This document shows positions 1,331 through 61,970 of a stretch of 64,000 nucleotides of DNA, piece after piece. A model generated the notes under the pieces. It saw nothing but the letters and a program-made list of their open reading frames with translations. It made no database searches and was not told the origin of the DNA. The first letter of the stretch is position 1. Each line of letters begins with the position of its first letter. The position numbers were made by a program, and so were the translations under genes. The DNA is taken from positions 3,437,168 to 3,501,167 of the forward strand of contig NZ_JAPNKE010000002.1 of NCBI RefSeq assembly GCF_026626665.1. Direction: 5' to 3'. This stretch comes from Nannocystis pusilla (GTDB lineage Bacteria > Myxococcota_A > Polyangia > Nannocystales > Nannocystaceae).

Positions 1331-1392
1331 CCTTTCGGGCATGTCCTCCGCGACATGCCCCCTCGAACCTGCCCTTTTGGACATGCCCCGAG
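1331..1392. repeat. 14-bp-period palindromic repeat array (4-5 units, core GGRCATGYCC) between convergent genes
   Basis: Units read tttcGGGCATGTCC / tccgCGACATGCCC / cctcGAACCTGCCC / ttttGGACATGCCC. Adjacent cores are mutual reverse complements, so they can pair into tetraloop hairpins. Confidence 0.7.
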
Positions 1393-2672: not shown

Positions 2673-5600
2673 ATGTCGCGCGCCGGCGGTGATCCCACCC
2701 CGCGGTCCTCCGGGCCGGACCCCGATCCCACGCTTGTCGGCGACCCTCCTCCGCGGCCGGACTTCGCCACCGACGAGACTCTGGCCGGAGATCTGTCGCC
2801 CCGCGCGCGGCCCCCCGCGAGCCCGCCCCCGGACCTCGACCGCTCGTCGCTCTCGCAGCGCGAGCGCGCGCTCCAGCTCACCCGTTACGTCCTCATGCGT
2901 CGCCTCGGCGCCGGCGGCATGGGTGTCGTCTACCTCGCCTACGACCCCAGCCTCGATCGCAAGGTCGCGATCAAGCTGCTGCGCGTGGCCCCCGGCGACG
3001 GCCCCGCCCAGGCCGCGCACGCTCGCCTGCTGCGCGAGGCCCAGGCGCTGGCCCGGCTGTCGCACGGCAACGTGGTCGCGGTCCACGACGTCGGCAGCTA
3101 CGACGCCGACGCCCTCACCACCATGCGGATCGGCCCGCACCGCACGGAGCCTGTCCCGAAGGACAGGGTGCCGCAGACCGCCGGCGTGTTCCTGGTGATG
3201 GAGTACGTCCCCGGCATCACCCTCGCCCAGTGGCTCGACGACCGCGTCCGCGGCGTGCGCGAGGTCCTCGACGTGTTCCTCGCCGCCGGTCGCGGCCTGG
3301 TCGCCGCGCACGCCGTCGGCATCATCCACCGCGACTTCAAGCCCGGCAACGTCCTGGTCGGAGAGACAGGTCGGATCTGCGTGTTCGACTTCGGCCTGGC
3401 GCGCCCCGCCGGCGAGGTCGAGCCGACCAGCCCCGCCGCTTCGCCCGAACCCGGCGCCCCGATCGATCCGCTGTCCTCCTCGCTCGTGTCCGGCCCGCTC
3501 ACCCGCGTGGGCACGCTCGTCGGCACGCCGGCCTACATGGCCCCGGAGCAGCGGGGCGGCGCCGCGATCGACGAGCGCGCCGATCAGTTCAGCTTCTGCG
3601 TCGCCCTCTACGAGGGCCTCTACGGCAACCGCCCGTTCAGCGGCGACAACCTGTTCGCGCTCGAGGCGGCCAAGGCCCGCGGTCGCGTCGATCCGCCGCG
3701 TCGCCCCGCCAAGGTCCCGCCGGCGATCCACCGCGCCCTCCTGCGCGGCCTCTCGGCTGAACCCGGGGACAGGTGGCCGTCGATGCAGGCGCTGCTCGAC
3801 GCGCTCGAGCGGCCGCTGCGGCGCGACCGCAGGCGCTGGGCCCTCGCCGGCGGCGGCGCGCTGCTCGTCGCCGGCGCCGTCGCCTTCGCCCTCGCCGGCG
3901 AAGCGCCTGCGCTGTGTACCGGGGCCGCCGAGGCGCTCGCGCCGACGTGGAACCCCGAGCGACGCGCCGCCCTCGACGCCGCCTTCGCGGCCACCGGCCT
4001 GCCGTACGCCCCCGACGCGGCCGCTCGCGCCGGCGCGCGCGTCGACGCCTGGGCCGAGGCGTGGATCGCCGGCCACACCGACGCGTGCGCCGCGGCCAAC
4101 ATCCGCGGCGAGCAATCACATGACCTTTGGACAGGCGCATGCACTGCCTCGAGGATCGCCGCCACGAGCTCGACGCCCTGCTCGGCGTGCTCGCCGGGGC
4201 CGACGCCGACGCCGTTGCGCACGCCCACGACGCCGTCGAGGCCTTGCCGTCCCCGGCCCGCTGCGCCGACCTCGACGCCCTCCGCGCCGACGTCGCCCCG
4301 CCCGCGCCCGCCCTCGCCGAGGCCGTCCAGGAGCTGCGCGACCAGCTCTCGCGCGCCAGCGCCGAGGCTGCGGCCGGCCACCCCGGCGCCGGCCTCAACC
4401 TGCTCGAGGCCGCCGAGCAGCGCTCGCGCGACCTCGGCTACCGCCCGCTGCGCGCCGAGGTGCTGGCGCAGCTCGCCGAGCAGCTGTTCGTCGCCAGCAA
4501 GTACGACGACGGCGTCCGCGTCTACGGCGACGCCTACTGGGAGGCGCTCGCCGCCGGCCACGACCGCCTGGCCTTCGAGACAGCCAGCGGCTTCGCCGGC
4601 CGCCTGGCGCAGACGCTCGGCCACCCCGACGACGCCCAGCCGTGGCTGCGCCACGCCGAGGCCCTCCACGAGCGCCTCGGTCGCCCGCCTCGCCTCGGCG
4701 GCGACCTCGAGTTCCGTCGCGGCCAGATCGCCGAGGCCCGCCGCGAGTACGCCACCGCCATCGACCACTACCGCCGCTCGCTCGCCGACCTGCCCGAGCG
4801 CTCGATCTCCGCCGTCACCACCCGCCAGAACCTCGCCAACGTCCACCTCAGCCTCGGTCAGCTCGAGCCGGCGCAGATCATCTTCGAGGACCTCCTGGCC
4901 CTGCGCCGCGACATCTACGGCGAGGGTCACCCGAGCAACGCCTTCTCGCTGGCCGACCTCGGCAACGTCGCCACCCTGCGCGGCGACTTCGACACCGCCG
5001 AGCAGCACCAGCGCGCCGCCCTGACGATCCTCCGCGCCGCCCTGCCCCCGCGCCACGAGCGGCTCGCCTACCCGCTGTCGGCGCTGGCCGACATCGCCGC
5101 CCAGCGCGGCGACTTCGGCGCGGCCCTCGACGCCTACGAGGAGGCGCGGGCGATCTGGGAGCACAACTTCGGCCCGCTGAGCACCCGCGTGGCCGCCATG
5201 CTCGAGCGCCTCGCCTCGGTCCAGCAGGTGCGCGGCGAGCTCGGGCTGGCCGAGCAGCACGCCACCCGCGCCCTCGCCATCTGGAGCGCCGCGCAGAGCC
5301 CCGACCCCCAGGGCATCGTCCTGGCCCACCTCGCCCTCGCGCAGATCGAGCTCGCCCGCGACAACTACGCCGCCGCCCGCGACCACACCGACAAGGCCCT
5401 GCCCCTGTCCGCCTCGGTGCTCGGCGAGGACAACCTCTATACCGCCGTCAGTCGGGCGATCCGGGGTCGCGCTCGCGGGCCTCGGCGACCTGTCGGCGGC
5501 CGAGCGCGAGGCCGACGCCGCCGTCGCGGCGATCGAGCGCAACTACGGCGGCGACTCGCTGTGGATGTCCGAGGTCCTGACCCCTCGCGCCAGGGTGCGG

Positions 5601-6082: not shown

Positions 6083-8164
6083 ATGTTGTCCTGCTCTGGC
6101 CTGGTCTCGCGCGCGTACCTCACGGTCACGTGGCTCGCCCTCGCCGGCTGTTACAGCGGCTTCTCGGGCGCCATCCCTGACGAGCAGACGCCGCCGGAGC
6201 GCCCGCCCGTCAGCGAGGGCCCGCTGGGCGCCCCGCAGCTCTCACCGCTCGAGCTCGACGCCCTCTCGCCCGACCCTGCGCCTGGCGGCGTCGCCTTCGA
6301 CCTCCACGTCACCGGCGCCGGGTTCACGCGCTCCAGCGTCGTCGTCGTCGCCGGTCAAGAGCTGCCGACCACCTTCGTCTCGGGCGGCGAGTTGCACGCC
6401 CACAGCGGCCCGCGCAAGCGCGGCGACTACGAGGTGCTGGTCCGCCGCGACGACGAGGAGTCGCGCCAGCTGACCCTCGCCGTCGAGCGCTCGGCCCCGC
6501 GGATCCTCGTCCCCGCCGAGGTCGGGGTCGACGAGGACACCGAGGTCGGCCTCGTCGTCGACGTCGTCGACGTCGCCGATCCCGCGGCCCTGCGCGTCCA
6601 CGTGCTCGGCCTGCCGCCGGGCGCCACCTGGGACGAGCCGACCCGCACCTTCCGCTTCACCCCCGACTTCACCCAGGGCGGCGATCGCTGGACCGTCACG
6701 GTGCTCGCCCACGACCACGAGTCGCGCGTCGAGGCCACCTTCGACGTCGTCGTCCGCGACACCATCCAGCCGCCGTGGCCCGAGGTCGTCGACACCGAGT
6801 TCCTCGACGCCAGCGGATATGTCCGTTACCACCTGGCCCAAAAGACAGATGACTACCTCGACAGCCCGGGCTACGCCGGCCGCGAGTTCGTCGCCAAGGT
6901 CATGGTCCCGCTCGACGTCCCGCCAGAGGGCGTGCCGGTGCGGATCGGCCTGCACGGCTTCGCCACGGCCAACCCCGGCGGCACCGGCTCGGCCAACGAG
7001 ATCCGGATCTCCCCGCACGACCCCGACAACACCTACTGGTGGGGCTACGCCGATTCGCTGCCCGACGTCGAGCCCGCGGCCGGCGCGCGCGCCCGACTAC
7101 ACCATGCGCCGCGTGCTCCACCTCGTCGAGTACGTCGTGCGCCACCACCCGAGGCCGACCCGCAGCGCGTCTACGTCTACGGCAGCTCGATGGGCGGCGC
7201 CGGGGCGATGCTGCTCGGCCTCCTGCGCGGGCGTCACTTCGCGTACATCGACGCGCGCCTCGGTCAGGCGATCGCCCGCAACCACCGGCCGTCGCGGATC
7301 ACCCAGCTGTCCGGCTGGTGGGGCGCGCCGGAGCTCGACCTCGACGGCGGCGGCGGCCTGTCGGCGTGGGATCACATGGACCTGACGCGCGCCCTCGCCG
7401 ACTCGAGCGAGGCCCGCGACCAGTTCCTGTTCCTCAAGCACGGCAAGGACGACCCGACCATCCACTTCGGCGCCGCCGTCCTGCCGAGCCCGCGCACCGG
7501 CGAGAGCTTCTATCAGGCGCTGCAGAGCCGCGGCGTCGGCCACTTCGCCATCTGGGACGAGGGCGGCCACGGCGTCGCCGATCCTGTCCTCGGGGACAGC
7601 TGGTGGACCGGCTCGTGGGCGCCGATCAGCGGCGACGAGGCCACGCTGCGCCGCGACCGGGCGTTCCCCGCCTTCTCGTACTCCTCGCTCGACGACGACC
7701 CCGGCGTCGGCGTCGGCAACGGCAAGCAGGACTGGAGCGCCAACGCGGGCTTCGCCGGCGAGGTCGCCATCGCCGGCGACACCGGCTGGGACGGCGCCAT
7801 CGCCGGCGCGCTCGGCCGGTTCCTCCGCTGGGACGGCGCCTCGGTGGTCGACACCGTCGATCGCCTGCAATTCGCCCTGCGCGTCCACGCCGGCGACGGC
7901 GCCGACCCGCCCGCGCCCGGCTACCCGAGCGAGGGCGACCGGGTGATGGCCGAGCTGCCCGCGTTCGTCGACGTGACCCCGCGCCGCACCCAGGCCTTCC
8001 GCTGCCGCCCCGGCGAGCGCGTCGCCTGGTCGTTCGGCCAGGACCACGGCGAGGTGGTCGCCGGCCCCGACGGCAGCGTCACGATCCCCGCCCTGCCGCT
8101 GACCGACACCTGGACCACTCTGGTCCTGCGCCGCACGCTCACCGTGATCGCCGCCTCCCACTGA
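6083..8164 (+). CDS. lipoprotein with N-terminal Ig-like region and C-terminal alpha/beta-hydrolase (esterase/peptidase-like, GSSMGG nucleophile elbow); compensating frame excursion ~7085-7150
   Basis: The signal peptide plus lipobox is MLSCSGLVSRAYLTVTWLALAGC. GxSxG appears as YVYGSSMGGAGA. The expected segment PDYTMRRVLHLVEYVVRHHP is readable only in the frame of ORF 6819..7385. The ATG at 6083 was verified in sequence. Confidence 0.65.
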   Translation: MLSCSGLVSRAYLTVTWLALAGCYSGFSGAIPDEQTPPERPPVSEGPLGAPQLSPLELDALSPDPAPGGVAFDLHVTGAGFTRSSVVVVAGQELPTTFVSGGELHAHSGPRKRGDYEVLVRRDDEESRQLTLAVERSAPRILVPAEVGVDEDTEVGLVVDVVDVADPAALRVHVLGLPPGATWDEPTRTFRFTPDFTQGGDRWTVTVLAHDHESRVEATFDVVVRDTIQPPWPEVVDTEFLDASGYVRYHLAQKTDDYLDSPGYAGREFVAKVMVPLDVPPEGVPVRIGLHGFATANPGGTGSANEIRISPHDPDNTYWWGYADSLPDVEPAAGARARLHHAPRAPPRRVRRAPPPEADPQRVYVYGSSMGGAGAMLLGLLRGRHFAYIDARLGQAIARNHRPSRITQLSGWWGAPELDLDGGGGLSAWDHMDLTRALADSSEARDQFLFLKHGKDDPTIHFGAAVLPSPRTGESFYQALQSRGVGHFAIWDEGGHGVADPVLGDSWWTGSWAPISGDEATLRRDRAFPAFSYSSLDDDPGVGVGNGKQDWSANAGFAGEVAIAGDTGWDGAIAGALGRFLRWDGASVVDTVDRLQFALRVHAGDGADPPAPGYPSEGDRVMAELPAFVDVTPRRTQAFRCRPGERVAWSFGQDHGEVVAGPDGSVTIPALPLTDTWTTLVLRRTLTVIAASH

Positions 8165-8412
8165 CACCTGGCCCTCCGGCCATGTCCGTTCAGACATCCT
8201 TATTAGAGGGACATGCTTTAGCGAGCATGTTCTCCTCGGGTGGTCGCGGGCCCCGACGGCAGCGTCACGATCCCCGCCCTGCCGCTGACGACACCTGGAC
8301 CAATCTGGTCCTGCGCCGTACGCTCACGGCAATCGCCGCCTCGCACCAGACATGGCCCCCCGGCCATGTTCTTTCCGACCTTTTCAAAGGACATGCTCCT
8401 GCGAGCATGTTC
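8065..8412. repeat. tandem duplication (~170-bp unit x2) made of the last ~100 bp of the upstream gene plus a ~70-bp GGACATG-type palindromic element
   Basis: Copy 1 (8065-8232) includes the coding tail ...GPDGSVTIPALPLTDTWTTLVLRRTLTVIAASH* plus the element ...ggccatgtccgttcagacatcc...agggacatgctttagcgagcatgttctcctcg. Copy 2 (8237-8412) repeats both with ~90% identity. Confidence 0.8.
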
Positions 8413-8701
8413 TCCTCGACATGTTCTCGAGAGGCGTCGAATCGCGGCTCCGACCAGCGAGCGCCGGCGCACCGCTCGCCGGACCGTCGCGGCCAGGCTC
8501 AACCCTGTCGCCCGTAGCGCGCGTGCGGGGGCGTCGACCCCCGCGCGACCCGTCGACGCGCGGGCGCCTCGGCCCACGCGAGCGATTGCCTCCGTCGCTT
8601 GGGCCGCGAGCAGGGCTCACGAGCTCCGCGGATCTGGGTGATTGAGCGCGTTTGGCACCCGTCCCTCCGGCACCTCGACGAAGGCCGCTCGCTGCGGTTA
8701 G

Positions 8702-9724
8702 ATGCCTCCCGTGCGCGACCCGCGGGTGCTCACGGCTGGCCTGGCGGCCGCGCTCGCCTGCGGTGAGCCGTCGCCTGTCGCGGAGCCCGAGGACGATGCG
8801 CCGGCATCGACCTCGCGCGCCGCCCCGCCGCTCGCCCACCTCGATCCGCTCGGCCCCCGCGATCTCGACCTCACGCGCGGGTCCTCGCTGCCGTTCCGCC
8901 CGGCCGTCCACCGCGAGCCGATCGACCCCCGCGACCGCGACCTTCTGGCGCGCTGGCCCTCGCTCGCGCACTACCCCCGCGTCCCGCAGGTGCTCGCCGC
9001 GGGCCTGCGCGCGCGCGAACCTGCCGCGATCTTCCGCGGCCTCGAGCTCGCCTTCGAGCCCGATCGCTGGGCCGAGATCGACGCCTGGGAGCGCCTCGGC
9101 CACATCCGCCTCGACGAACCCGCCGGCTTCTGCCGCACCGACGCCGGCCGCCCCGTTCAGCTGTCCCCGGGGACATACGACCTCGGCTGCCTCGGCGGCT
9201 TCCTCGAGGGCGTTCGCCTGCTGTGGTTGCCGCGGATCGAGCTCGCCGACCTCGTGCCCTGCGACCCGCCCGGCGGCTTCGAGTCGTGCCAGGACGGCGC
9301 TCACGCCGGCCGTGCCGCCCTCCTGCAGATAGCGGCCCGCCTGCCCGCCGAAGCCCTCCCGCACGGCCTCGAGCTGCTCGACCTGCGCCTCGGCGAGCTC
9401 GCACCCGACGCTCTGATCGCCGCCCTCGTCCCCGACGCGCTCCACCTCTGCAGCGTCTCGCACCGCGCTCGCGCCCGCGGCGGCGAGCGCATGTACCATC
9501 ACATGATGATCGTCGACCCCGCCCGCGATCACCTCGGCCGCGTGCGCGTGTTCGACACCACCGGCGCCGCCGGCGTCGCCTGGCGGTCGATGCGACCCGA
9601 GCGCCTGCACGCCTACGCGCGCCGCCTCCTGGCCCGCCACGACACCTTCCGCTACGACCCCGAGACCGCCCGGCTCGCCTGCCTGCCCGTGCGCCCGCCG
9701 GCCGGCGAAATCACAGGTCCGTGA
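8702..9724 (+). CDS. hypothetical lipoprotein
   Basis: A 340-aa ORF whose N-terminus ends in LAAALAC (lipobox-like). It is read in Pro/Ala-rich, high-GC codon style. No recognisable domain. The start codon is uncertain. Confidence 0.45.
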   Translation: MPPVRDPRVLTAGLAAALACGEPSPVAEPEDDAPASTSRAAPPLAHLDPLGPRDLDLTRGSSLPFRPAVHREPIDPRDRDLLARWPSLAHYPRVPQVLAAGLRAREPAAIFRGLELAFEPDRWAEIDAWERLGHIRLDEPAGFCRTDAGRPVQLSPGTYDLGCLGGFLEGVRLLWLPRIELADLVPCDPPGGFESCQDGAHAGRAALLQIAARLPAEALPHGLELLDLRLGELAPDALIAALVPDALHLCSVSHRARARGGERMYHHMMIVDPARDHLGRVRVFDTTGAAGVAWRSMRPERLHAYARRLLARHDTFRYDPETARLACLPVRPPAGEITGP

Positions 9725-10320: not shown

Positions 10321-10365
10321 TCGAAGAGGACATGTCCGCAAGAACATGCCCTCTCGAACAGCCTG
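10321..10365. repeat. 14-bp-period GGACATGYCC repeat array (3 units) between convergent genes
   Basis: tcgaagaGGACATGTCC gcaa GAACATGCCC tctc GAACAGCC. Confidence 0.65.
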
Positions 10366-10377: not shown

Positions 10378-11466
10378 TCAGAACTCGTCGAGGCCCTGGC
10401 CGAGCTCGACCCCGAGCGCTTCCTGGGCGGCGGTCGGGCACGGCGACCCGAAGCGCGACTCGTAGCGGGCCGTGAACTCGGCGTTGGCGACCATCGCCTG
10501 GTCGTCGGTCTGCAGCTCGGGGAGCAGCCCGCGGACCGCGAACACCTCGATCTCGCCGACGCTGCGGGTCACCGTCGTCTGCAGGAACTCGAGCGAGAAG
10601 AACGGCTCGATGAGCTGACGGACCGCCCCGGACACGCACACCGAGTCGGGCTGGCCGACGCGCTCGACGTGGCTGGCGACGCTGACGGTGTCGCCCCACA
10701 GGTCGTAGACGGGCTTCTTCGAGCCGAGCACGCCGGAGATGCAGGGGCCCGAGTGGAGGCCGATGCGGAAGCTCCAGTCCCACTCGTCGACGATCGGCGT
10801 CAGCCCCGACGCCACCACCTGGGCGCAGCGCAGCGCCGCGAACGTCGCGTCGACGGCGTGCGACAGGCGGCGGTGGGGGATGCCCGAGACCGCCACGTAC
10901 GTGTCGCCGGCGGTGCGCAGCTTCTCGACCCCGAACGCCGACGTGATCTGGTCGAAGGCCGAGAAGAAGAAGTCGAGCTGCTTGAGGCAGGTGACGGGAT
11001 CGACGCGGGCGGCCAGGCGCGAGAACTGGACCGCGTCGATGAACATCACCGTCGACTCGCGGTAGGCCTTGGGCTGGAGCCGCTCGCCGAGCGGCGCCGC
11101 CGACTCGCGCGGCAGCACCGCCAGCGCCAGGCTCTTGTCGAGCAGGGTCGCGGTCGCCAGCTGCGACGCCAGCGCCCGCGGCGAGCGGATGGCCACGCCC
11201 ACCGCCAGCACCCCGTCGGAGGGCTCCAAGGACAGGTCCCATGCGACAGGTCCTTCGGGCCAGGGATTCTCCGGCACCGCCTTGCCGCTGCTCTCGGCCA
11301 GGCTGCGCAGGAACGCCGGCGACGCGGCGCCGAACAGCGCGCCGAGGCTGGGCGCGCCGGGGCGGGCGGCCAGCCAGCGGGCCGCCGCCGGCGACGCCGG
11401 GGTCACCCTGCCGTCGGCATCGACGCGCAGCGCGATCGACTCCACCAGCTCGAGGATCGCCACCAT
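10378..11466 (-). CDS. class III adenylate/guanylate cyclase (CHD) with ~150-aa N-terminal sensor-like domain
   Basis: The cyclase homology domain reads STVMFIDAVQFSRLA...KLRTAGDTYVAVSGIP...RIGLHSGPCISGVLGSKKPVYDLWGDTVSVASHVE. It is the last gene of the operon and its start overlaps the upstream stop. Confidence 0.8.
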   Translation of the reverse strand: MVAILELVESIALRVDADGRVTPASPAAARWLAARPGAPSLGALFGAASPAFLRSLAESSGKAVPENPWPEGPVAWDLSLEPSDGVLAVGVAIRSPRALASQLATATLLDKSLALAVLPRESAAPLGERLQPKAYRESTVMFIDAVQFSRLAARVDPVTCLKQLDFFFSAFDQITSAFGVEKLRTAGDTYVAVSGIPHRRLSHAVDATFAALRCAQVVASGLTPIVDEWDWSFRIGLHSGPCISGVLGSKKPVYDLWGDTVSVASHVERVGQPDSVCVSGAVRQLIEPFFSLEFLQTTVTRSVGEIEVFAVRGLLPELQTDDQAMVANAEFTARYESRFGSPCPTAAQEALGVELGQGLDEF

Positions 11467-14945: not shown

Positions 14946-15218
14946 GCGCCGCAGACTGAAGGTCACACAGGGGATCCGCCTTGGCAAGCTGATGCGCACC
15001 CGATCGTGGCCGAGAAGATTATCTCAGCCCTCGCGCGGAAACGCGCCGCGTAGCCTGGCGCAGGCCCCGTCGGCCTCTGTCTCAAAGACCACCCAGCGGC
15101 GCTACCGGACCGCGGGCCACTGCGCAGGTCGCGTGTGCGACGGACTGCATCTTGAGACATGGTCCGAAAACCATGACGCGGCGCGGCGAGCCCGGCGAAA
15201 GTGGCCCGAAAGCAGGCC

Positions 15219-17156: not shown

Positions 17157-17900
17157 GTGAGCGGCCGGCGCTCGGACGGACCTGTCCCATCGGACACCCT
17201 CGCGGCCCTCGACCGCGCCCGCGACCAGGCCGGCCCGCACCTCTGGTTGGTCCCCGCCCCGCCCGCCGCCGGCGACGCCGACGAGGCCCTGCGCGAGCTC
17301 GACGAGCTGCTCGCCCGCGGCGAGTTCGACGAGCCCGCCGTCGCTCGCCTGGTGGCCCTGGCGCCGCGCGCCCCGGGCCGCCTGCGCGCCGTCGTGGCAG
17401 CCCTCGCGGCCGCGGGCAGCCCCGCCGCGGTGGCCGGCCTGCTCACCCTGCCGCAGGTCCCCGGCGCGCTCGAGGCGGCGGCCCGCGCCCTCGCTCGCGG
17501 CCTCACCCGCGCCCTGCCCGGCTCCGCTTCCGCGCCGGTGTTCTTCGCCCTCGACTTCCGCGGTTCGCGGGCGCGGCCGTTCCCCGACCTGCTGCGGCGC
17601 GCCCAGCTGGTCGCCGCCGATCCGAGCGGCGCCCTGCGCCTCGACGTCCTCCGCGTCGACGGCAAGCCCGCCTACCGCCTGTCCTTTTGGCCAGACACGA
17701 TCCCGCCGCGCGCCCGCGCCGAGCTCGCCCGCGCCTGCGCCGCCGACCTCGCGCTGCTCCACGGCCGCCTCGCGCGCCTCCGCGGCGCCCGCCTGTGGCT
17801 GAACGGCTTCTGCTTCCCGGACGACGGCCCGGTGTCGGTCGCCGCCCAGGGCCATCTGTTGGCCGCGTGGTTGACATGGTCCGAAGGACATGCCCCGTGA
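17157..17900 (+). CDS. hypothetical protein
   Basis: A 247-aa ORF in the same frame as the downstream AAA gene. It is separated from that gene only by a repeat element carrying two TGA codons. Confidence 0.4.
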   Translation: MSGRRSDGPVPSDTLAALDRARDQAGPHLWLVPAPPAAGDADEALRELDELLARGEFDEPAVARLVALAPRAPGRLRAVVAALAAAGSPAAVAGLLTLPQVPGALEAAARALARGLTRALPGSASAPVFFALDFRGSRARPFPDLLRRAQLVAADPSGALRLDVLRVDGKPAYRLSFWPDTIPPRARAELARACAADLALLHGRLARLRGARLWLNGFCFPDDGPVSVAAQGHLLAAWLTWSEGHAP

Positions 17901-17925
17901 GACATGACCTGAAGGACACCTCGTT
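17883..17925. repeat. 14-bp-period GGACATGCCC repeat array (3 units)
   Basis: ccGAAGGACATGCCC / cgtgAGACATGACC / tgaaGGACACCtcg. In the upstream ORF's frame it contains TGA at 17898-17900 and 17910-17912. Confidence 0.65.
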
Positions 17926-17939
17926 CGCGCGCGCGCCTC

Positions 17940-19391
17940 CGCCTGCGCGAGGCGCTGCAGGCCGGGGCGCGCGGCCTGGGCCTGCGCGCGGTCGACGAGG
18001 CGCGGGCGCTGCGGCTGTGCGAAGACGTCGGCGAGCGGCTCGACTGGCCCGTCCACACCTGGAGCGCGGCCGGCGGGCGCGACGGCCTCGGCGCCCCCGA
18101 GCCGCTGGCCGACCTCCTGCGCGGCCTCTTGCGCGACCCCGATCCCGGCTTGTGGGTGCTGCTCGATCCGCCCCCGCTCGAGCCCGTCGCCTTGCGGGCC
18201 CTCCGCGAGCTCGCGCAGCGCAGCGTCGGGCCCGCGGTCGTCGTCGTCGGCGACCTCGCGCCTGCGCTCGTCGCCATCCCCGAGCTCGAGCTGCTGGAGC
18301 TCGAGCTGCCCGACGCCGACGAGCTCACCGGCCTCGCCGCCGACCTCGTCGACGAGCTGCGGATCGCCGGCCGTCCCGGTCCTGCCGCCGCGCTCGCTCG
18401 CCGCGCCTCGCGGCTCGCCCACGCCGCGCTCGGCCTGTCCGAGCACCAGGCCCGTCGACTGCTGCGCCGCGCCGCCGACGTCCCCGCCGACGACGCCGCG
18501 CTCGCCGAGCTCGGCGCCGGCAAGGCCGAGCTGCTGCGCCGCGGCGGCCTGCTCGAGCGCGTCGAACCTGTCCCTTCCGACATGCTCGGCGGGCTCGCGC
18601 AGCTCAAGCAGTGGCTGGCCCGCCGCGCCCTCGCCCTCCGCCCCGAGGCCCGCGCCGCGGCGATCCCCGACCCGCGCGGCGTCCTGCTCGTCGGCGTGCA
18701 GGGCTGCGGCAAGAGCCTGGCGGCCCGCGTCTGCGCCCACGCGCTCGGCCTCGGCCTCCTGCGGCTGGAGCCGGGCCGGCTCTACGGCGGCACGCTGGGC
18801 GAGAGCGAGGCCAACCTGCGCCGCGTCACCGCGACGGTCGAGCGCATCGCTCCGGTCGTTTTGTGGATCGACGAGCTCGACAAGGGCCTGGCCGGCAGCG
18901 AGGGCCCGGCCAGCGACGCCGGCACCGCGGCGCGGGTGCTGGGCGGCCTGCTCACGTGGCTGCAGGAGCGCCGTCGTCCGGTGTTCGTGGTCGCCACCGC
19001 CAATCAGGTCACGCGTCTGCCGCCCGAGCTGACACGTCGCGGCCGTCTCGACGAGATCTTCTTCGTCGACCTGCCCGATGCGGACGAACGCGCTGCCATC
19101 GCGGAGATCCATCTCGAGCATGCGCCGCGCTCGCACATGGGCGCCGCCCCGGTCCTCGCTGATCCGTTGCCCGACCTCGTCGACCTCGTGCGCGCGGCCG
19201 ACGGACTCTCGGGCGCCGAGATCGAGGGCGCGATCGTGGAGGCTCGCCTCGACGCGTTCGCCGAGTCGCGACCGCTCGCGCGCGGCGACCTCGCTCGCGC
19301 GCTCGCCGCGACCATCCCGCTCAGTCGCAGTCGTGCCGGCGAAATCACGGCCCTGCGGGCGTGGGCGAGCGCTGCGGCCCGCAGGGCTTGA
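17940..19391 (+). CDS. AAA+ ATPase (single AAA module with ~250-aa N-terminal domain); start codon unresolved
   Basis: Walker A is LLVGVQGCGKSLAA and Walker B is VVLWIDELDK. The sensor/arginine-finger region reads VFVVATANQVTRLPPELTRRGRLDEIFFV. The open frame begins just after 17912, and the first ATG in frame is at 18129. Confidence 0.6.
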   Translation, partial: RLREALQAGARGLGLRAVDEARALRLCEDVGERLDWPVHTWSAAGGRDGLGAPEPLADLLRGLLRDPDPGLWVLLDPPPLEPVALRALRELAQRSVGPAVVVVGDLAPALVAIPELELLELELPDADELTGLAADLVDELRIAGRPGPAAALARRASRLAHAALGLSEHQARRLLRRAADVPADDAALAELGAGKAELLRRGGLLERVEPVPSDMLGGLAQLKQWLARRALALRPEARAAAIPDPRGVLLVGVQGCGKSLAARVCAHALGLGLLRLEPGRLYGGTLGESEANLRRVTATVERIAPVVLWIDELDKGLAGSEGPASDAGTAARVLGGLLTWLQERRRPVFVVATANQVTRLPPELTRRGRLDEIFFVDLPDADERAAIAEIHLEHAPRSHMGAAPVLADPLPDLVDLVRAADGLSGAEIEGAIVEARLDAFAESRPLARGDLARALAATIPLSRSRAGEITALRAWASAAARRA

Positions 19392-21846: not shown

Positions 21847-22420
21847 GCCCGAGCGCCGGCGCCCGGTCCGCTGGCGGCCGTGGCTGCGCGCCCTCCACCG
21901 CGACATCGGCTACGTCGCCGTCGGCCTCACCTTCGTCTACGCGCTGTCGGGCCTCGCGGTCAATCACATCGCCGACTGGGACCCGAACTTCGACAACTAC
22001 GAGGCGCGCCACCAGGTCGCCGTGCCGCTGCCCGAGGACGACCGCGCCGCCGCCGACGAGGTCCTCGCCGAGCTCTCCATCCAAAATCCGCCGACCGAGG
22101 TCTACCGCAGCGACGCGCGCGAGCTGTCGATCCTCCTCGACGGCAGCACCCTCCACGTCGATCTCGACAGCGGCGTCGTCCTCGAGGACGGCCAGCGCCC
22201 GCGCCTGTTGCTGCGGGTCGCCAACTGGCTGCACCTGAACCGCGGCAAGAAGGCCTGGACCTACATCGCCGACGGCTACGCCGTGTTCCTGCTGTTCCTC
22301 GCCGCCTCGGGCCTGTTCATGCTGCCCGGCCGCAAGGGCCTGGTCGGCCGCGGCGGCGTGCTCGTGCTGCTCGGCGTCGCCGTCCCTGTGCTGTACGTGA
22401 CCCTGTCCGGCGGGCCATGA
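21839..22420 (+). CDS. PepSY-associated TM-helix family membrane protein
   Basis: The start overlaps the upstream stop (ATGCCTGA). TM helices flank a periplasmic segment. The motif WLHLNRGKKAWTYIADGYAVFLLFL is characteristic of PepSY_TM. Confidence 0.6.
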   Translation: MPEPERRRPVRWRPWLRALHRDIGYVAVGLTFVYALSGLAVNHIADWDPNFDNYEARHQVAVPLPEDDRAAADEVLAELSIQNPPTEVYRSDARELSILLDGSTLHVDLDSGVVLEDGQRPRLLLRVANWLHLNRGKKAWTYIADGYAVFLLFLAASGLFMLPGRKGLVGRGGVLVLLGVAVPVLYVTLSGGP

Positions 22421-22540
22421 CCCGAAGGACATGGCCGCTCAGACATGCCCGAAAAGGCATGCGCTGAATTCCAGGCACCGCGCCTCGACCGGTTCGGACA
22501 TGTGCGAAGGGGCATGCCCGAACGGACATGCCCCCGAAGT
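22421..22540. repeat. large 14-bp-period GGACATGYCC repeat array (two clusters, about 8 units)
   Basis: ccGAAGGACATGGCC gctc AGACATGCCC gaaa AGGCATGCGC ... ttcGGACATGTGC gaag GGGCATGCCC gaac GGACATGCCC ccgaag. It lies between convergent genes. Confidence 0.75.
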
Positions 22541-26078: not shown

Positions 26079-26081
26079 CCT

Positions 26082-26295
26082 GTCCCTTCGACCAGCCTCA
26101 CACGTACCCGGGACGACGCCTCACCTCGGCCATGTCCCTGAGGTCCTGTCCCTTCGACCAGCCTAACCTGCGCGCCCCCGACACGTGCGCCTCACCTCGG
26201 CCATGTCCCTGAGGTCCTGTCCTCGAGGTTCTGTCCTTTCGACCAGCCTCACCTGCGCGCCCCCGACACGTGCGCCCTGCCCATCGGCGTCGCGC
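26082..26295. repeat. about three tandem copies of a ~66-70-bp unit (CTGTCCCTTCGACCAGCCTCAC...CCTCACCTCGGCCATGTCCCTGAGGTC)
   Basis: The copies begin at about 26082, 26148 and 26231. Each contains GGCCATGTCCCTGAGGTCCTGTCC, which is related to the 14-bp family. Confidence 0.75.
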
Positions 26296-26405: not shown

Positions 26406-28111
26406 GTGTTCGGCTCGCTCCCGCCGCCGCCGCGGCGCTACTTGCCCGCGCGCGTGCGCCTCGATCGGCTCGCCGATCTCGAGGCCTGCTACGGCGAGCT
26501 CGGCGCGCGACCGCTGCCGGCCGACGACCCGTGGATCCTCGAGCAATGGCTGCGCGACTGGTCCGAGCTCGAGAGCCACCTCGCCGAGGCGCAGGCGCGG
26601 CGCCAGATCGCCACCAGCTCCAGCGCCGACGACCCCGAGGCCGCGCGCGCCTGGCTCGTCCACGTCGACGTCCTCGGCCCCGCCTGCAAACCGCTGCGCC
26701 ACGGCCTCGCGCGGCGGCTCGTCGAGCACCCGGCCGCAGCTCGCCTCCCGCCCGGCCACGCCTGCGCCCTCGCGGTGCTGCGCAACCAGGCCGACCTCCA
26801 CCGCCCCGCCCTCGTCCCGCTCGAGGCCGCCGAGCAGCACCTGTGCGCCGCCTACGGCCAGCTGCGGGCCGGCATGCGCTTCCACTGGGACGGCGCCGAC
26901 ATTCCGCTCGCCCACGTCGAGCGCAGCGACGACGACCTGACCGTTCGCGACGCGAGGCCGCCTGGCGCACCGTCGCCGCCGAGTTCCGCGCAGTGAAGCC
27001 CGAGCTCGATCACCTGTTCGACCGCCTCCTCGACAACCGCCGGGCCCAGGCCGCCGCCGCCGAGCTGCCCGACTACCGCGCCTATCGCTTCCGCCGCCTC
27101 GACCGCCTCGCCTACGGCCCCGCCGACTGCCTCGCGCTGCACGAGGCCATCGCCGCCGAGTTCGTCCCGCTCGCCGGCCGCGTCCTCCGTCGCCGCGCAG
27201 CCGCGCTCGGCCTCGACGTCCTGCGCCCGTGGGACCTCGGTGCCCTGCCCGGCGGCCCGCTCGTCCCGTTCACCCGCGAGGAGGCGCTGATCGCCGGCTG
27301 CGCCCGCGCCTTCGAGGCGGTCGACCCCGAGTTCGCCCGTCAGTTCTCGCGCCTCGCCGAACATGGCCTTTTGGACCTGATGTCGCGGCCAGGCAAGGCC
27401 GCCGGCGCCTTTCAGGTCCACCTCCACGCCAGCGGCCTCCCCTTCGTGTTCGCGGGCGCCGTCGGCCGCCACGAGGACCTGCTCACCGTCTTGCACGAGG
27501 GCGGCCACGCCTTCCACGCCCTCGCCTGCGCCGGCGACCCGCTGATCTGGAACCGCCACCCGCCGATCGAGTTCTGCGAGGTCGCGGGCATGGGCATGGA
27601 GCTGCTCGCCGCCACCCACCTGGGCGCCTTCTACGACGCCGACACCTGCGCCCGCGCGGCCCGCCACCAGCTCGAGCAGCTCGTCCTGTTCCTCCCGCAC
27701 GCCGCCGCCATCGACGCCTTCCAGCACTGGGTCTACACCCGCCCCGACGAGGCCGGCGATCGTGCGACCCGCGACGCCGCCTGGCTCGCGCAGCACTGGC
27801 GGCTGTGCCCCGGCGTCGACTGGAGCGGCCTCGAGGCCGACCGCGCCGCCTTGTGGCAGCGCCGCCTGCACGTGTTCGAGCTGCCCTTCTACTACATCGA
27901 GTACGCGATCGCCGGCCTCGGCGCGGTCCAGCTGTACCGCCGCGCCCTCGCCGAGCCCGCCGCCGCCGTCGCCGACCTGCGTCGCGCCCTCGCCCTCGGC
28001 GCCCGCGCCCGCCTGCCCGACCTGTTCGCCGCCGCCGGCCTGCACTTCGGGACAGATCGCCACACCGTGCGCCAGGCCGCCGCCGCCTGCCGCGAGCTCC
28101 TCGACCTCTGA
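26406..28111 (+). CDS. M3-family oligoendopeptidase F-like zinc metallopeptidase; frame break ~26950
   Basis: The HExxH motif is LHEGGHAFHAL, with a downstream Glu in EFCEVAGMGMELLA. The N-terminal 180 aa are in the frame of ORF 26406..26996 and the rest in the frame of ORF 26270..28111. Confidence 0.75.
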
Positions 28112-28202: not shown

Positions 28203-29435
28203 TCACTCGTACGCCGTCACGTACATGTGATACGTCTCGAAGTCGACCGCGCCCGAGGCGAAGATCGTCCCCGCGTCGTCGATCGCCACGTCGACCTCCC
28301 ACGACCCGCTGTCGCAGCTGTGCACCGCCAGCGTCACGCCGGACGGGTCGAGCCGCGCCACCATCCCGCGGAACGGCGGCTCGTTGTTGTACTCGCCGCC
28401 GACCGCGATCTCACCGCTCGCGTTGACCGCGAGGTCGCCGAAGCCCCACATCCCCTCGACGAACGTGTCCCACAGCGGCGTCCCATCCGCCGCGAACTTC
28501 CCGATCTTCACCGCCGACGACCCGATCTCGGCCCCGACCACCACCGCGCCCGCGCCGTCGATCGCCGCGGTACTGAGCACCGAGAGCTCCCACGGGCGCG
28601 TCCACAGCTCCTCGCCGGACGGGTCGAACAACCGGACGCCCTCGTCCCACACCAGCGCCACCATCGCGCCCGCCGAGCCGATCGCCGCCACTTCGAGTTG
28701 CTCCGCGACCTCGAGGTCCCACAGCAGCGTCCCGTCGGCCGCGTGCTTGACCATCCGCGTCCCGTCGCCGACGGCGGCGCGGTCGCTGTACACCGTCGTC
28801 CCGTCGCCCGCGACCGCGATGTCGTAGCCCCACGCGTAGCCCTGATCGCGCGGCCCCAGGTCGCGCTCCCACAGCATCGCTCCGGCCGGGTCGAACTTGC
28901 GCAGCCACTTCCGCGGCGACACCCCGTCCTCGTCGCGGAACATCCCGTAGCCGTTGCCCTCGGCGTCGATGTCCCAGTGGACCGCCCCCGACGGGATCGG
29001 TGTCGTCGCCACCAGCGTCCCCGTCGCGTCGAACTCGCGCGACAGACCGTCGCTGAACACCCGCGCCCGCCCGTCGGCCGCGAGCGACACCTTGCCCGCG
29101 CCGCTCGTCTCCGGATCGACGAACAGCCACGCCCCGCCCTCGCACGCGAAGTCTTCCGGCGTCGAGCCCGAGTCGGTGTCGTGCATGCCCGTCGTCGTCT
29201 CGGTCGTCGCGTCGCCCGGTCCGTCGGTCGTCTCGTCCGGGCCGCCGGTCGTCTCCGCCGCGCTCGTCGTCCCCTCGCTGTCGCTCCCGCCGCCGGTCGT
29301 CCCCTCGCTGTCGCTCCCGCCCGTGGTCGTCCCCGTGCTGACGGTCCCGCCCGTGACCCCCGGGTCCTTCGGATCGCAACCTGTCACTACAGCCATGAAC
29401 CCAAGGACATGTCCAATATACCATGTTCTAATCAT
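28203..29435 (-). CDS. lipoprotein with Thr/Gly-rich linker and beta-propeller-like repeat domain
   Basis: Signal plus lipobox is MIRTWYIGHVLGFMAVVTGC. A GGAGAG SD lies upstream. Repeated motifs are WD/WE...DG...V. The ATG was verified (cat at 29433-29435). Confidence 0.6.
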   Translation of the reverse strand: MIRTWYIGHVLGFMAVVTGCDPKDPGVTGGTVSTGTTTGGSDSEGTTGGGSDSEGTTSAAETTGGPDETTDGPGDATTETTTGMHDTDSGSTPEDFACEGGAWLFVDPETSGAGKVSLAADGRARVFSDGLSREFDATGTLVATTPIPSGAVHWDIDAEGNGYGMFRDEDGVSPRKWLRKFDPAGAMLWERDLGPRDQGYAWGYDIAVAGDGTTVYSDRAAVGDGTRMVKHAADGTLLWDLEVAEQLEVAAIGSAGAMVALVWDEGVRLFDPSGEELWTRPWELSVLSTAAIDGAGAVVVGAEIGSSAVKIGKFAADGTPLWDTFVEGMWGFGDLAVNASGEIAVGGEYNNEPPFRGMVARLDPSGVTLAVHSCDSGSWEVDVAIDDAGTIFASGAVDFETYHMYVTAYE

Positions 29436-36459: not shown

Positions 36460-37378
36460 ATGGGACCGTTCCGCCTCGAGACTCTCACCAGCCGCGACGT
36501 CCGGGACCGCCTCGAACGTCTCGAGCTACCGTTCAATCAATACGGCATGGATCCGTTCGGGATCTCCAAGAAGCACCTCGGCGTCTTCTATTCGATGCTC
36601 GAGGTCTTCTACAAGATACTTCCGGGTGAAGTGCTTCGGCATCGACAACGTGCCGGAGCGCGGCGGCGCGATGCTCGTCGGCAACCACTCCGGCGGTCTG
36701 CCGGTCGACGGCGGCATGGTGCTCGCATCGTTGTTCTTCGCCCGCGACCTCCCGCGCCACGCCACCGGCATGGTCGAGAAGTTCGCCGGCAACTGGCCCT
36801 TCGTGTCCGAGTGGTTCTCGCGCGTCGGTCAGCTCCCCGGCCTGCCCGAGCACGCCTTGCGGCTGCTGCAGGACGGCCGCCTGCTCATGATCTTCCCCGA
36901 GGGCGCGCGCGGCACCGGCAAGCTCTTCAAGGATCGCTACCGCCTGGTCCAGTTCGGCACCGGCTTCATGCGGATCGCCCTGCAGACCGGCGCGCCGATC
37001 GTCCCCTTCGCCTTCATCGGCGGCGAGGAGGCCCTCCCCACCATCTACCACGCCAAGACGCTGGCCAAGATCGTCGGCGCCCCCTACTGGCCGGTCCCAC
37101 CGTACCTCGTGCCGTTCCCGCTGCCGCTCGGCTGCGAGATCCACTACGGCAAGCCGATGCACTTCCCCGGCACCGGCCGCGAGCCCGACGAGGTCATCGA
37201 GGGCTACGTCGAGCAGGTCAAGAGCGTCGTCAAGCTGCTGGTCCTCCGCGGCTGCGCGCTCCACCGCCAGCGCACCGACGGAACTTTCGCACAGGAACCC
37301 GAGGACAGCTCGTCCGGCTCGTCCTCCGCCGCGCCCTCCTCGACCTCCGGCCCGACCGACACCGACTCCGAACCATGA
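36460..37378 (+). CDS. PlsC-type (LPLAT) acyltransferase; frame break ~36620
   Basis: The LPLAT H-box context is MLVGNHSGGLPVDG, and box III is LMIFPEGARG. The N-terminal 55 aa (MGPFRLETLTSRDV...) are in the frame of ORF 36301, the rest in the frame of ORF 36419. Confidence 0.7.
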
Positions 37379-38286
37379 AGATCTTGATCACCGGCATCAA
37401 CGGCGCCCACGCGCGCATGGTCGCCCTGCGCCTGCGCGCCCGCGGCGACGAGATCCTCGGCATCGACCGCCGCCCCTGGCCCGACGCGCCCGAGGGCGTG
37501 CACGTGTTTCAGACCGACGTGCGCAAGCGGCCGGCCGCCGACGTGTTCCGCCAGCACCGGCCCGACGTCGTCATCCACATGGCGACGATCACCCACTTCA
37601 CCGCCAGCGCCGAGGAGCGGCTGCGCATCAACCTCCACGGCACCCGCCTCGTGTTCGAGTACTGCCACGAGTTCGGCGTCAAGCAGGCCGTGTTCGTCGG
37701 CCGCCACACGATCTACGGCGCCGCCCCCGACGCGCCGCTGTACCGCACCGAGGAGGAGCCGCCGCTGGCCGTCTCGACCTTCCCCGAGCTGGCCGACCTG
37801 GTCGCCGCCGACCTGTTCGCCGCCGCCGCGCTGTGGCGCTGGCCCGGGCTCAAGACCGCCGTCCTGCGCATGGTCTACATGCTCGGCCCGACGCACCGCG
37901 GCACCCTCGCCAGCTTCCTCGCCGGCCCGCGGGTGCCGACGATCCTCGGCTTCGATCCGCTCTACCACTTCATGCACGACGAGGACGGCGTCGAGGCGAT
38001 CGTGCGCGCCGTCGATCACCAGCTGAGCGGGATCTACAACGTCGCCGGCCCGCCGCCCGTCCCGCTGTCGACGCTGGCCCGCGGCACCGGCCGCCAGCCG
38101 ATCCCGATCCCCGAGCCGCTCTTCAAGTACAGCGCCGGCCGCTTCGGCCTGCCCTACCTGCCGCCCGGCGCCGTCGCCCACATCAAGCACCCGATCGTCG
38201 TCGACGCCACCGCCTTCCGCCGCGCCACCAACTTCGAGCACAAGCACGACGCCCACGCCGTCATGGTCAGCTTTCGCGAGTCCTGA
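37375..38286 (+). CDS. NAD-dependent epimerase/dehydratase family protein
   Basis: The Rossmann fold is MKILITGINGAHARMVALRL. A Tyr-x3-Lys-type core is retained. The ATG overlaps the upstream TGA. Confidence 0.8.
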   Translation: MKILITGINGAHARMVALRLRARGDEILGIDRRPWPDAPEGVHVFQTDVRKRPAADVFRQHRPDVVIHMATITHFTASAEERLRINLHGTRLVFEYCHEFGVKQAVFVGRHTIYGAAPDAPLYRTEEEPPLAVSTFPELADLVAADLFAAAALWRWPGLKTAVLRMVYMLGPTHRGTLASFLAGPRVPTILGFDPLYHFMHDEDGVEAIVRAVDHQLSGIYNVAGPPPVPLSTLARGTGRQPIPIPEPLFKYSAGRFGLPYLPPGAVAHIKHPIVVDATAFRRATNFEHKHDAHAVMVSFRES

Positions 38287-38340
38287 AGGACATGTCGCGG
38301 AGGACATGTCGGGACAGACATGTCCCTCAGGACCCGCGGT
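38283..38340. repeat. 14-bp-period GGACATGTCS repeat array (3-4 units)
   Basis: tGAAGGACATGTCG cgGAGGACATGTCG ggacAGACATGTCC ctcaGGAC. Confidence 0.7.
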
Positions 38341-43830: not shown

Positions 43831-44024
43831 CCTGAAACCAAAGAGAATACGCCCGAGGCGAAGCCCGCCCCTGAGCCGCGACCAAGCTCTATCTTCGGAG
43901 GCCAGCCAGGCTCGATTCATGCCCTGGGCCCCCGACCCTGGACCTCGCGCCCCATTCCGCGGCAAGCCCCCTCTGAGCCGAGACGCGCCCGACGCCTCCA
44001 CGCAAGGCCCCCTCCTCGGCCGCT

Positions 44025-44100
44025 GCCCGGCAAGCGCCCCTCGGCCCGCCTGCCCGGCAAGCGCCCCTCGGCCCGCCTGCCCGGCAAGCGCCCCTCGGCC
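44025..44100. repeat. 3 x 27-bp perfect tandem repeat (CCCGGCAAGCGCCCCTCGGCCCGCCTG)
   Basis: Seen directly in the ~420-bp region between the convergent lspA paralog and pabB-like genes. Confidence 0.85.
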
Positions 44101-44254
44101 CAAGCTTCTTGCGCGCTTCGTCGCAAAACCGGGTCAGCGGCCCAGAGGGCCCGCCTGCGCGACGCGATCAGGCTCCCGCGCTTCCTGGCGCGCCGTCGCC
44201 CGCGTTTTTCGCCCTGTCTTCCAAGCAGCTCACCGGGCTGCCGAAGCCTGCCGC

Positions 44255-54320: not shown

Positions 54321-54395
54321 GACTGTCCTGAGGGACATGTCCTCACGGGCATGTCCCTCGGCACCTGCTCCCGAGCACCTGCCCGAATAAACCTG
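54321..54395. repeat. 14-bp-period repeat array (5 units: ACATGTCC / GCATGTCCC / ACCTGCYCC)
   Basis: gactgtcctgaggg acatgtcctcacgg gcatgtccctcggc acctgctcccgagc acctgcccgaataa. Confidence 0.75.
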
Positions 54396-60331: not shown

Positions 60332-60334
60332 GCG

Positions 60335-61862: not shown

Positions 61863-61970
61863 GCGATCACCTCCGGAGTGCTGAGACGATGAAACGAGCG
61901 GCCGGGCCGCACGCCGCCGAGGGGCGGCGCGGCCGGCGTGGCGAGGGACGTGCGCGGCATGGTCGGAGCC

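Follow-up and report, generated by a model that had tools for sequence, protein, structure and literature searches.

A 64,000-nucleotide stretch of the Nannocystis pusilla genome (called the window below; G+C content about 72%, locus tags OV079_15150-15265 by exact protein matches) carries a family of iterated palindromes. Each repeat unit consists of the 10-bp palindrome GGACATGTCC and a spacer of 4 nt, and units follow each other at a strict spacing of 14 nt. The family is real and far beyond chance. Part of it lies within open reading frames (ORFs), and we lean towards reading these blocks as old family members that sit on tolerant loops and termini of proteins of native length and are kept there by a constraint or drive at the DNA level, rather than as recent insertions of 42 bp. 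An earlier note on this DNA had proposed the latter, i.e. that three-unit copies insert into genes in frame-preserving triplets.

With at most one mismatch, GGACATGTCC was found 29 times in the window (1.7 expected), and unit pairs spaced by 14 nt were found 54 times (0.41 expected). The histogram of core spacings has 17 pairs at 14 nt and five at 28 nt; six other spacings of up to 60 nt are represented by one or two pairs each. CATG-N10-CATG occurs 22 times against 0.43 expected, and CATG-N10-CATG-N10-CATG seven times against 0.00. None of the seven exact triplets of CATG cores lies in the interior of a coding sequence (CDS). A position weight matrix (PWM) was built from the intergenic units and arrays were called at a cut-off of at least 14 bits. 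This yielded 25 arrays in 64 kb, or 0.39 per kb. The negative control consisted of 80 unrelated loci with the generic cyclase pattern [FY]DLWGDTV, no Nannocystis locus being included, and had 0.004 arrays per kb over 1.25 Mb.

Within CDSs, nine two-unit PWM matches of at least 12 bits compare with 0.23 after codon permutation within genes, and four strong units with a partner at 14 nt compare with 0.05 under the same null. At this ~80-fold excess the codon-usage coincidence that the earlier note had itself considered can be rejected. Isolated strong units, in contrast, are at chance level in CDSs (6 against 5.8 expected), and the entity that is over-represented in genes is thus the pair, not the single palindrome. 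An Rfam search at the gathering threshold found no family that matches the repeat, and no description of it was found in the searchable literature.

The copies in genes, with the cyclase gene that the earlier note had discussed first, are the following.

10378 to 11466, minus strand: CDS of a class III adenylate/guanylate cyclase of 362 aa (Pfam PF00211, E = 4.5e-36), host of the next array
11230 to 11271, minus strand: array in the N-terminal domain of the cyclase, encoding NPWPEGPVAWDLSL; two-unit PWM score 20.2 bits
17178 to 17201, plus strand: one strong and one weak unit in codons 8-15 of the gene for a 247-aa protein 3' of smpB (CDS 17157-17900), encoding GPVPSDTL
18564 to 18587, plus strand: pair in the AAA ATPase gene, GAACCTGTCC CTTC CGACATGCTC, encoding EPVPSDML; 19.4 bits
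27359 to 27382, plus strand: weak pair in the M3 peptidase gene (26993-28111); 12.1 + 4.4 bits
29391 to 29428, minus strand: array with three exact CATG cores over a putative lipoprotein signal peptide, MIRTWYIGHVLGFMAVVTGC
40116 to 40139, plus strand: pair in an epimerase-like gene, GGACATGGCC GCAA GGACATGTCC, encoding TWPQGHV in the loop after the 'TTRS' strand; 30.5 bits
51092 to 51115, plus strand: pair in the gene for a 115-aa membrane protein (CDS 50848-51195), encoding TCPEGPA between two hydrophobic segments; 22.2 bits
61790 to 61813, minus strand: pair in the enoyl-CoA hydratase gene ECH1 (CDS 61107-61862), encoding TGPGGHV at residues ~18-24, the position of the crotonase N-R-P-x-x-x-N loop; 24.9 bits

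The gene map behind these placements is a rough one, taken from a codon log-odds frame scan. The same coding frame is found on both sides of an array only at 11230, 18564, 27359, 40116 and 51092; three further sites (17178, 29391 and 61790) are near N-termini. The host ORFs named in the earlier note are genuine genes, with matches to PF00211 (cyclase), PF00004 (AAA), PF00378 (enoyl-CoA hydratase) and, weakly, PF01370 (epimerase). Its translations could also be reproduced. Positions 11225-11262 (minus strand), within the cyclase ORF 10378-11466, read CCC TGG CCC GAA GGA CCT GTC GCA TGG GAC CTG TCC TTG GAG and encode PWPEGPVAWDLSLE; 40100-40141 in the epimerase-like gene encodes SGTWPQGHVPEGIE, 51088-51125 in the small membrane protein STTCPEGPALW, and 29396-29420 in the lipoprotein signal peptide IGHVLG. 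Copies are likewise present in the AAA ATPase (EPVPSDML at 18564-18587), in the ORF starting at 17157 (DGPVPSD) and at 61783-61826, where the enoyl-CoA hydratase has GTGPGGHV at 61790-61813.

Other parts of the earlier description have to be amended. About seven sites do lie in ORFs where the note had placed them, whereas several are at gene ends: the cited copy at 17872-17923 is at a stop/start junction, those at 17178 and 61790 are within the first 30 codons, and the one at 29391-29428 is in a signal peptide that lacks coding annotation at NCBI. The in-ORF copies are also not 42-bp blocks of three units. Each has two strong units (8-17 bits), and the third position scores only -6 to -1 bits, corresponding to the top ~2-10% of the coding background.

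Insertion of frame-preserving triplets was not borne out by ortholog alignment. In five of the six testable genes the protein has its native length at the array, and the cyclase alone is ambiguous. For the epimerase-like protein, 29 orthologs at identities as low as ~53% have TWPxGHVPE, and none of them a 14-residue indel; remoter members differ in the residues of the loop but not in its length, and PDB 3gpi deviates by at most 4 residues. In the AAA ATPase, EPVPSDML directly precedes the GG of the native x-D-x-[LIV]-G-G-L motif. Alignment with p97 and with 30 representatives of the family needs no gap here, and any difference in length is that the Nannocystis group has 1-2 residues fewer. A PabB-like gene has a 23-bit array in the lineage of locus L087 (the numbers prefixed with L denote our comparison loci) and a weaker array-like stretch at the same place in N. 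pusilla and N. punicea. The protein has 421 aa in all three, with a local difference of 2 residues at the array (a 3-residue gap offset by a 1-residue gap), and the segment aligns without gaps with a Stenotrophomonas structure. In the 115-aa membrane protein, the annotation of which is identical among several Nannocystis genomes, three lineages have conserved TCPEGPA together with its codons (L086 and L089 retain ACA TGT CC. GAA GG. CCT); the difference from a more divergent version is a 5-residue indel.

The ECH1 loop shows a gradation. The start of the gene at 61862 is fixed by 251-aa orthologs, and the length of the loop is constant in 29 orthologs down to 42% identity, including Enhygromyxa salina; in alignments with PDB structures the difference is +1 residue. 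Its residues grade from EPGDKPEV in Enhygromyxa through GPDEAGHV, EPGPEGQV and APGPSGHV to GTGPGGHV. At the orthologous site, in all cases without an indel, the PWM score is 25.7 bits in the window, 14.5 in L089 (65% identity), 13.7 in L090 (60%) and -4.9 in Enhygromyxa (42%). The 14.6-kb ECH locus of Enhygromyxa was scanned and contained no arrays.

The cyclase differs from these cases. An identical protein is annotated in N. pusilla, and the gene is annotated identically across several Nannocystis genomes. Its array has two strong units, at 11230-11239 (GGACAGGTCC) and 11244-11253, followed by a weak one at 11258-11267. PWPEGPV(A/S)WDLS is shared by all orthologs of 361-368 aa (65-98% identity). 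In a syntenic sister clade (~54% identity, 342-351 aa) array-like DNA is missing, and MAFFT opens a gap of 14 columns there. A difference of exactly 14 residues did not survive re-measurement between fixed anchors: the segment has 49 residues against 33, i.e. 16 more, which MAFFT had split as 14+2. In the sister clade itself the segment ranges from 26 to 33 residues, in a remote homolog it has 58, and the short clade can be aligned with some of the array peptide (GP..W.....P). The difference fits a gain of ~42-48 nt and is in this respect suggestive, yet it does not amount to a clean 14-residue insertion.

In-ORF arrays use A/T-ending codons that are rare in this genome, at a frequency of 24-41% as compared to 2-5%. 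The cyclase array has 10 such codons in 42 (24 in 1041 in the rest of the gene), the AAA array 11 in 27 (74 in 1410). Over nine syntenic genes, codons that are A/T-ending in the window were A/T-ending in both orthologs, from two other species, at 10 of 14 array sites but at only 8 of 89 sites outside arrays (odds ratio 25, Fisher p = 1.3e-6). Lineage-specific features of the AAA array are the Met in D-M-L and its rare codons (GAA, CCT and CCT), of which GAA and CCT are conserved in L001 and L002. The epimerase array is conserved in N. punicea (L086) and decayed in L087 (58% identity), where its rare codons nevertheless persist; L088 has common codons instead. Arrays are present at matching sites in other species and genera (L001, L002, L086, L089 and L090). 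Taken together, conserved positions, native length and conserved rare codons argue for a constraint or continuing drive on the DNA itself, over the protein code. Unrelated proteins moreover have stretches in common. The 18-nt string TGGCCCGAAGGACCTGTC (TGG CCC GAA GGA CCT GTC, encoding WPEGPV) is found in the cyclase of the window and in the epimerase ortholog of L087, which belongs to another genus, and TW(P/S)(E/Q)GH(V/A)P is common to the epimerase and the C-terminus of the 247-aa protein.

Genes are not the main place of the family. About 14 of the 25 arrays are intergenic and a further three are at stop or junction positions. The density of arrays outside genes is ~10-fold that inside, where it is ~0.15 per kb in CDS interiors, with pairs only. 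Most arrays are located no more than ~30 nt 3' of stop codons or in convergent or tandem intergenic regions, and every convergent spacer of useful length in the window has one. Arrays follow immediately 3' of stops at 1337, 5852, 8164, 10328, 28114, 38288 and 54333, overlap the stop codon itself at 9711 and 22399, and bridge stop/start junctions at 9711 and 17872. Examples are listed here.

1337 to 1388, plus strand: array of four units in a convergent intergenic region, behind the stop at 1330
8164 to 8426, plus strand: intergenic cluster of four arrays after the stop at 8164
10328 to 10351, plus strand: two-unit array between the convergent DUF218 and cyclase genes
17872 to 17923, plus strand: four-unit array at the junction of the genes for the 247-aa protein and the AAA ATPase
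22399 to 22533, plus strand: convergent intergenic region with two arrays, 22399-22464 (overlapping the stop at 22420) and 22496-22533
38288 to 38325, plus strand: three-unit array, typical of the intergenic ones, adjoining the stop of the epimerase gene 37375-38286
54333 to 54356, plus strand: two-unit array 16 nt past the stop at 54317; 31.4 bits

At 38288 the array is equally long in N. pusilla and N. punicea; the two species agree in the cores and have diverged in the spacers. The cluster at 8164 has a six-unit counterpart in L001 (12211-12290), and the L001 spacer orthologous to the 10328 array has more units and is ~43 nt longer. The junction array 17872-17923, which encodes the C-terminal TWSEGHAP, the stop and then the N-terminal (M/V)RHDLKDT of the AAA protein, is identical in length and register in L001 and L002. 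Arrays sit on start and stop codons since they carry ATG on both strands and often TGA in their spacers, and they can provide overlapping stops and starts. At the ECH1/ECH2 junction, an ATGA overlap, the genes meet within a weak repeat pair in the window (61081-61118) and within the pair GGACAGGT ATGA ACGGACAGGTCC in L089 (10745-10768) and L090 (10772-10795). The spacer after the stop at 26078 contains a tandem duplication of 71 bp (26079-26222; 2.1 copies, 84% matches). A repeat pair is present in both copies, at 26128 and 26199, and arrays can thus be duplicated together with their flanks.

The location behind genes raises the question of whether the arrays act as hairpins in RNA or single-stranded DNA (ssDNA), in the manner of repetitive extragenic palindromic (REP) sequences and bacterial interspersed mosaic elements (BIMEs), i.e. 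as terminators, stabilisers of mRNA 3' ends or processing sites, with the ORF copies as tolerated spill-over. We regard this as rather improbable, though better placed than the other alternatives. It agrees with the position of most arrays just past stops or in convergent and tandem spacers, and two neighbouring units can form a hairpin with a stem of 10 bp and a loop of 4 nt. Many predicted folds are indeed far more stable than those of shuffled sequences (z down to -5.95); this stability is, however, expected from the palindromic consensus alone, and at 51092 (z = -0.03), 61790 (z = -1.64) and 17872 (z = -1.63) the folds are no better than shuffles. Adjacent units are not more complementary to each other than random pairs (7.05 against 6.96, p = 0.34, 41 adjacent pairs), and G.U mismatches on the sense strand (11) are not in excess of A.C mismatches (19). 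Compensatory changes that seemed apparent by eye at 1337 and 22496 accordingly disappear as an excess over the 41 pairs. What is conserved is a specific sequence, beyond pairing, and arrays also occur at overlapping stop/start junctions of co-transcribed genes and in essential-looking domains, where termination would be harmful. Hairpin-templated (quasi-palindrome) conversion was considered as the origin of second units and discarded, as unit-to-unit complementarity is not above random.

Mobile palindromic elements, similar to the Rickettsia palindromic elements (RPE) or to REP-like sequences and miniature inverted-repeat transposable elements (MITEs), would insert into genes, and only copies of three units that keep the frame (42 bp, 14 codons) would survive. 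This is the model of the earlier note, and we now think it unlikely. The cyclase is its best case, given that the array-bearing clade is longer than its sister in exactly the array segment, where MAFFT placed the 14-column gap. The core GGACATGTCC is also free of stop codons in every frame, and the unit number varies between species in at least one intergenic array, that of the 10328 spacer. The same peptides (TWP, GHV and DMS) recur, which follows from the fact that three units cycle through all three frames. The native length in five of six genes speaks against it, as do the 16 rather than 14 extra residues of the cyclase, the partial alignment of its array peptide with the short clade, the still longer remote homolog and the presence of two strong units, not three, in the in-ORF copies. 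Array positions are shared over 60-85% protein identity, which gives no sign of recent mobility, and presence/absence polymorphism with clean ends was not seen among the relatives compared.

A molecular drive, by biased uptake as with the uptake signal sequences (USS) and DNA uptake sequences (DUS) or by biased repair as proposed for HIP1, would preferentially fix point mutations towards the motif, in coding and non-coding DNA alike and in the absence of any function at the site. Inverted pairs 3' of genes are typical of DUS. The conserved sites of native length at poorly conserved residues match the description of uptake sequences in proteomes (PMC2817400), and the conservation within and between ORFs matches that of HIP1 (PMC5861425). 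Yet USS, DUS and HIP1 are single motifs, whereas single units are not enriched in the CDSs of the window (6 against 5.8) and only exact 14-nt pairs are; uptake sequences favour preferred codons (PMC2817400), and the arrays use rare ones. A pure drive of this kind seems quite unlikely to us. Chance matches arising from codon usage in a 72% G+C genome can practically be dismissed, since apart from the fact that loops rich in G, P and W are common nothing favours them, codon-permuted nulls gave 0.05-0.23 against 4-9 observed, the arrays use rare A/T-ending and not common codons, and identical 18-nt strings occur in unrelated genes.

If the in-ORF blocks are old and maintained at the DNA level, as we favour, the recognised entity would be the palindrome pair in duplex DNA, most likely bound by a sequence-specific protein that is dimeric and binds cooperatively. 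Duplex palindromes are favoured as the target of such a factor because the specific sequence is conserved and not merely pairing. The strict short period points to cooperative recognition; three units span 42 bp, equal to four helical turns. In genes, a tolerant peptide (G, P, T, W, H, V, D, S) would have been recoded towards the motif by synonymous or conservative substitutions, and changes in the length of coding arrays would survive only as multiples of three bases, which may explain the one longer segment, that of the cyclase. Candidate functions would be nucleoid organisation, the marking of gene ends and the recognition of self DNA.

Several points weigh against this view. All comparisons come from ~150 kb of a handful of relatives, not from whole genomes. 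The apparent conservation of rare codons is partly due to common descent, for which the non-array codons of the same genes serve as control. If a bipartite 24-nt motif evolved in place by point mutation, intermediates would be expected, and isolated units do not exceed chance; some partners are weak, those at 17178, 24814 and 27359 being examples. In the cyclase, the segment that is 16 residues longer than in the sister clade contains the array, and an insertion or expansion is possible there. The fold z-scores of -4.5 to -6 in 5 of 16 array folds, with milder values in several others, leave a role in RNA or ssDNA open, and the recognition by a protein is a step that we only infer.

The family is apparently an undescribed one of iterated palindromes, set apart from HIP1, uptake sequences, REP/BIME, RPE and the mycobacterial interspersed repetitive units (MIRU). 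Closest in behaviour is HIP1, the cyanobacterial palindrome GCGATCGC, which is conserved between genomes beyond neutral expectation and is suspected of a role in chromosome or nucleoid organisation (PMC5861425). Both are short, hugely over-represented palindromes within and between genes, and the Nannocystis sites in ORFs are likewise conserved beyond neutral expectation, by the rare-codon comparison (10/14 against 8/89, p = 1.3e-6) and by their positions in L001, L002, L086 and L089. HIP1 is, however, a single 8-mer with about one copy per gene and an even spread, whereas the Nannocystis motif comes in pairs and arrays with a 14-nt period, has single cores at chance in genes and is ~10-fold denser at gene ends than within genes.

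Uptake sequences (USS in Pasteurellaceae, DUS in Neisseriaceae) are found in genes at native length, on poorly conserved residues and with recurrent encoded peptides (PMC2817400). The Nannocystis arrays resemble them in these three respects, in the inverted pairs behind genes and in that both apparently accumulate by substitution and not by insertion. In contrast to the palindromic, paired units with rare codons described here, uptake sequences are asymmetric single motifs with common codons and are tied to natural competence; the over-representation of a single motif in coding DNA is not found here (6 isolated units against 5.8 expected).

With REP/BIME sequences the family has in common its mainly extragenic location at 3' ends and between genes, the frequent clustering and the predicted hairpins. 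The compensatory stem changes are missing (7.05 against 6.96, p = 0.34; G.U 11 against A.C 19). REP sequences have a GTAG-type head and hairpins of 20-40 bp, whereas the Nannocystis consensus has 10-bp units at a fixed 14-nt period and no GTAG-like head, and conserved copies inside CDSs are atypical of REPs. No gene for a REP-associated tyrosine transposase (RAYT, an IS200/IS605-like Y1 transposase) was seen in these 64 kb of an 11.9-Mb genome, in which no search was aimed at RAYT.

RPE, reportedly described by Ogata et al. in 2000, are insertions of 100-150 bp that lie in frame in genes, leave these intact and are absent from orthologs. The likeness consists in a dispersed palindromic family that is translated in frame in several unrelated genes (WPEGPV / TGGCCCGAAGGACCTGTC) and in encoded peptides that are located in segments resembling surface loops. 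An insertion of element length relative to orthologs without the element is absent in five of six genes, the 16 extra residues of the cyclase being ambiguous. MIRU of Mycobacterium are non-palindromic intercistronic repeats of 46-101 bp, the copy number of which varies between strains. Like the Nannocystis junction arrays (17872-17923, and ECH1/ECH2 in L089 and L090), they bridge stop and start codons in operons with reading frames running through. The Nannocystis arrays differ in unit size and in being palindromic, and the junction arrays have the same length in three species.

Some of the host genes and their surroundings deserve separate mention. The operon that ends in the cyclase gene is headed by a GRAS-family gene, just upstream of which there is a conserved motif CTTGCCAAG ... 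TGTGTGAC. It was found at 14967-15010 (minus strand) in the window, at ~5500-5570 in L001, ~6480-6520 in L002, ~1620-1650 in L084 and ~6395-6430 in L085. The motif recurs across genera (~54% protein identity) and may have a role as promoter, operator or leader. The array upstream of the GRAS-family gene was rejected as conserved across genera, its position relative to this motif being different.

The AAA ATPase gene seems to be frameshifted near its 5' end (17897-17940). The window lacks 2 nt in the CGCGCGCG run as compared to L001 and L002, and its start codon is GTG instead of ATG. The N-terminal MRHDL.. is read in frame +1 and the remainder of the gene in frame +2, which could reflect an indel of the assembly, a real pseudogene or an alternative start. 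In L002, the ortholog of the 247-aa protein has a 36-nt in-frame tandem repeat in its N-terminal region (4130-4314, 5.1 copies), which encodes SPVPPDSLTAPG and holds CTGTCC-CTCC-GGACAG, i.e. half-core, spacer and half-core of the family; only one copy is present in the window and in L001. With a period of 36 and not 42, it was not accepted as a three-unit expansion.

The epimerase-like gene (39990-40860) is split by a frameshift near 40430-40445 and has no canonical start before the GxGxxG motif. NCBI annotates only a 195-aa 'hypothetical protein', OV079_15200, which corresponds to the ORF 40049-40636; an intact version of 293 aa (P0070, 99% identical) is present in another assembly. For the lipoprotein (28203-29435), NCBI places the start after the array (397 aa), and this start, MAVVTGC, leaves no signal peptide before the lipobox Cys. 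Other gene callers place it before the array (410-412 aa). Related strains conserve RTWYIGHVLGFM as well as the longer start MIRTWYIGHVLGFMAVVTGC (410 aa), which is the more plausible one; the A/T-rich codons and the repeat probably led to the miscall. A tandem repeat from outside the family (29266-29355, 30 nt x 3.0) lies in the Thr/Gly/Ser-rich linker of the same protein; others are found at 44014-44101 (27 nt x 3.3, 96% matches) and 51478-51592 (60 nt x 1.9).

ECH1 belongs to a beta-branching cassette with HMG-CoA synthase (59500-63212; HMG-CoA synthase, ECH1, ECH2 and short-chain dehydrogenases). It is syntenic with loci L089-L091, which add KS, AT, FabA-like and ACP genes, and appears to be a small cluster for the modification of polyketides or fatty acids that is conserved in Nannocystaceae. 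Between the stop of the HMG-CoA synthase gene and the start of ECH1 the window has a spacer of 108 nt (61863-61970) with an open frame and no coding signal; in L089, L090 and L091 these genes overlap or have 0-10 nt between them. A single perfect GGACATGTCC-N4-GGACATGTCC was found among 2.9 million viral contigs, as the only array of a contig with 66% G+C (L092, IMGVR_UViG_3300005675_000065, positions 8925-8948).

A bolder proposal, which we put forward tentatively and hold for less probable than the age and DNA-level maintenance of the in-ORF blocks, is that pairs and arrays of GGACATGTCC at 14-bp spacing constitute a second selected DNA code in Nannocystis and its relatives. It would be read by a dedicated protein, mark gene ends and overwrite CDSs at the cost of rare codons, and its role would be genome-wide, be it nucleoid organisation, gene-boundary marking or recognition of self DNA. 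If true, a large myxobacterial genome would contain an undescribed repeat system that combines traits usually found separately, namely a REP-like location at gene ends, a conservation in genes at native length like that of HIP1 or uptake sequences, and a strict short period. There is also a consequence for annotation, as arrays mislead the calling of start sites, the lipoprotein annotated without a signal peptide being an example. The system would further provide a test case for overlapping constraints, in which a DNA-level signal within genes is revealed by conserved rare codons.

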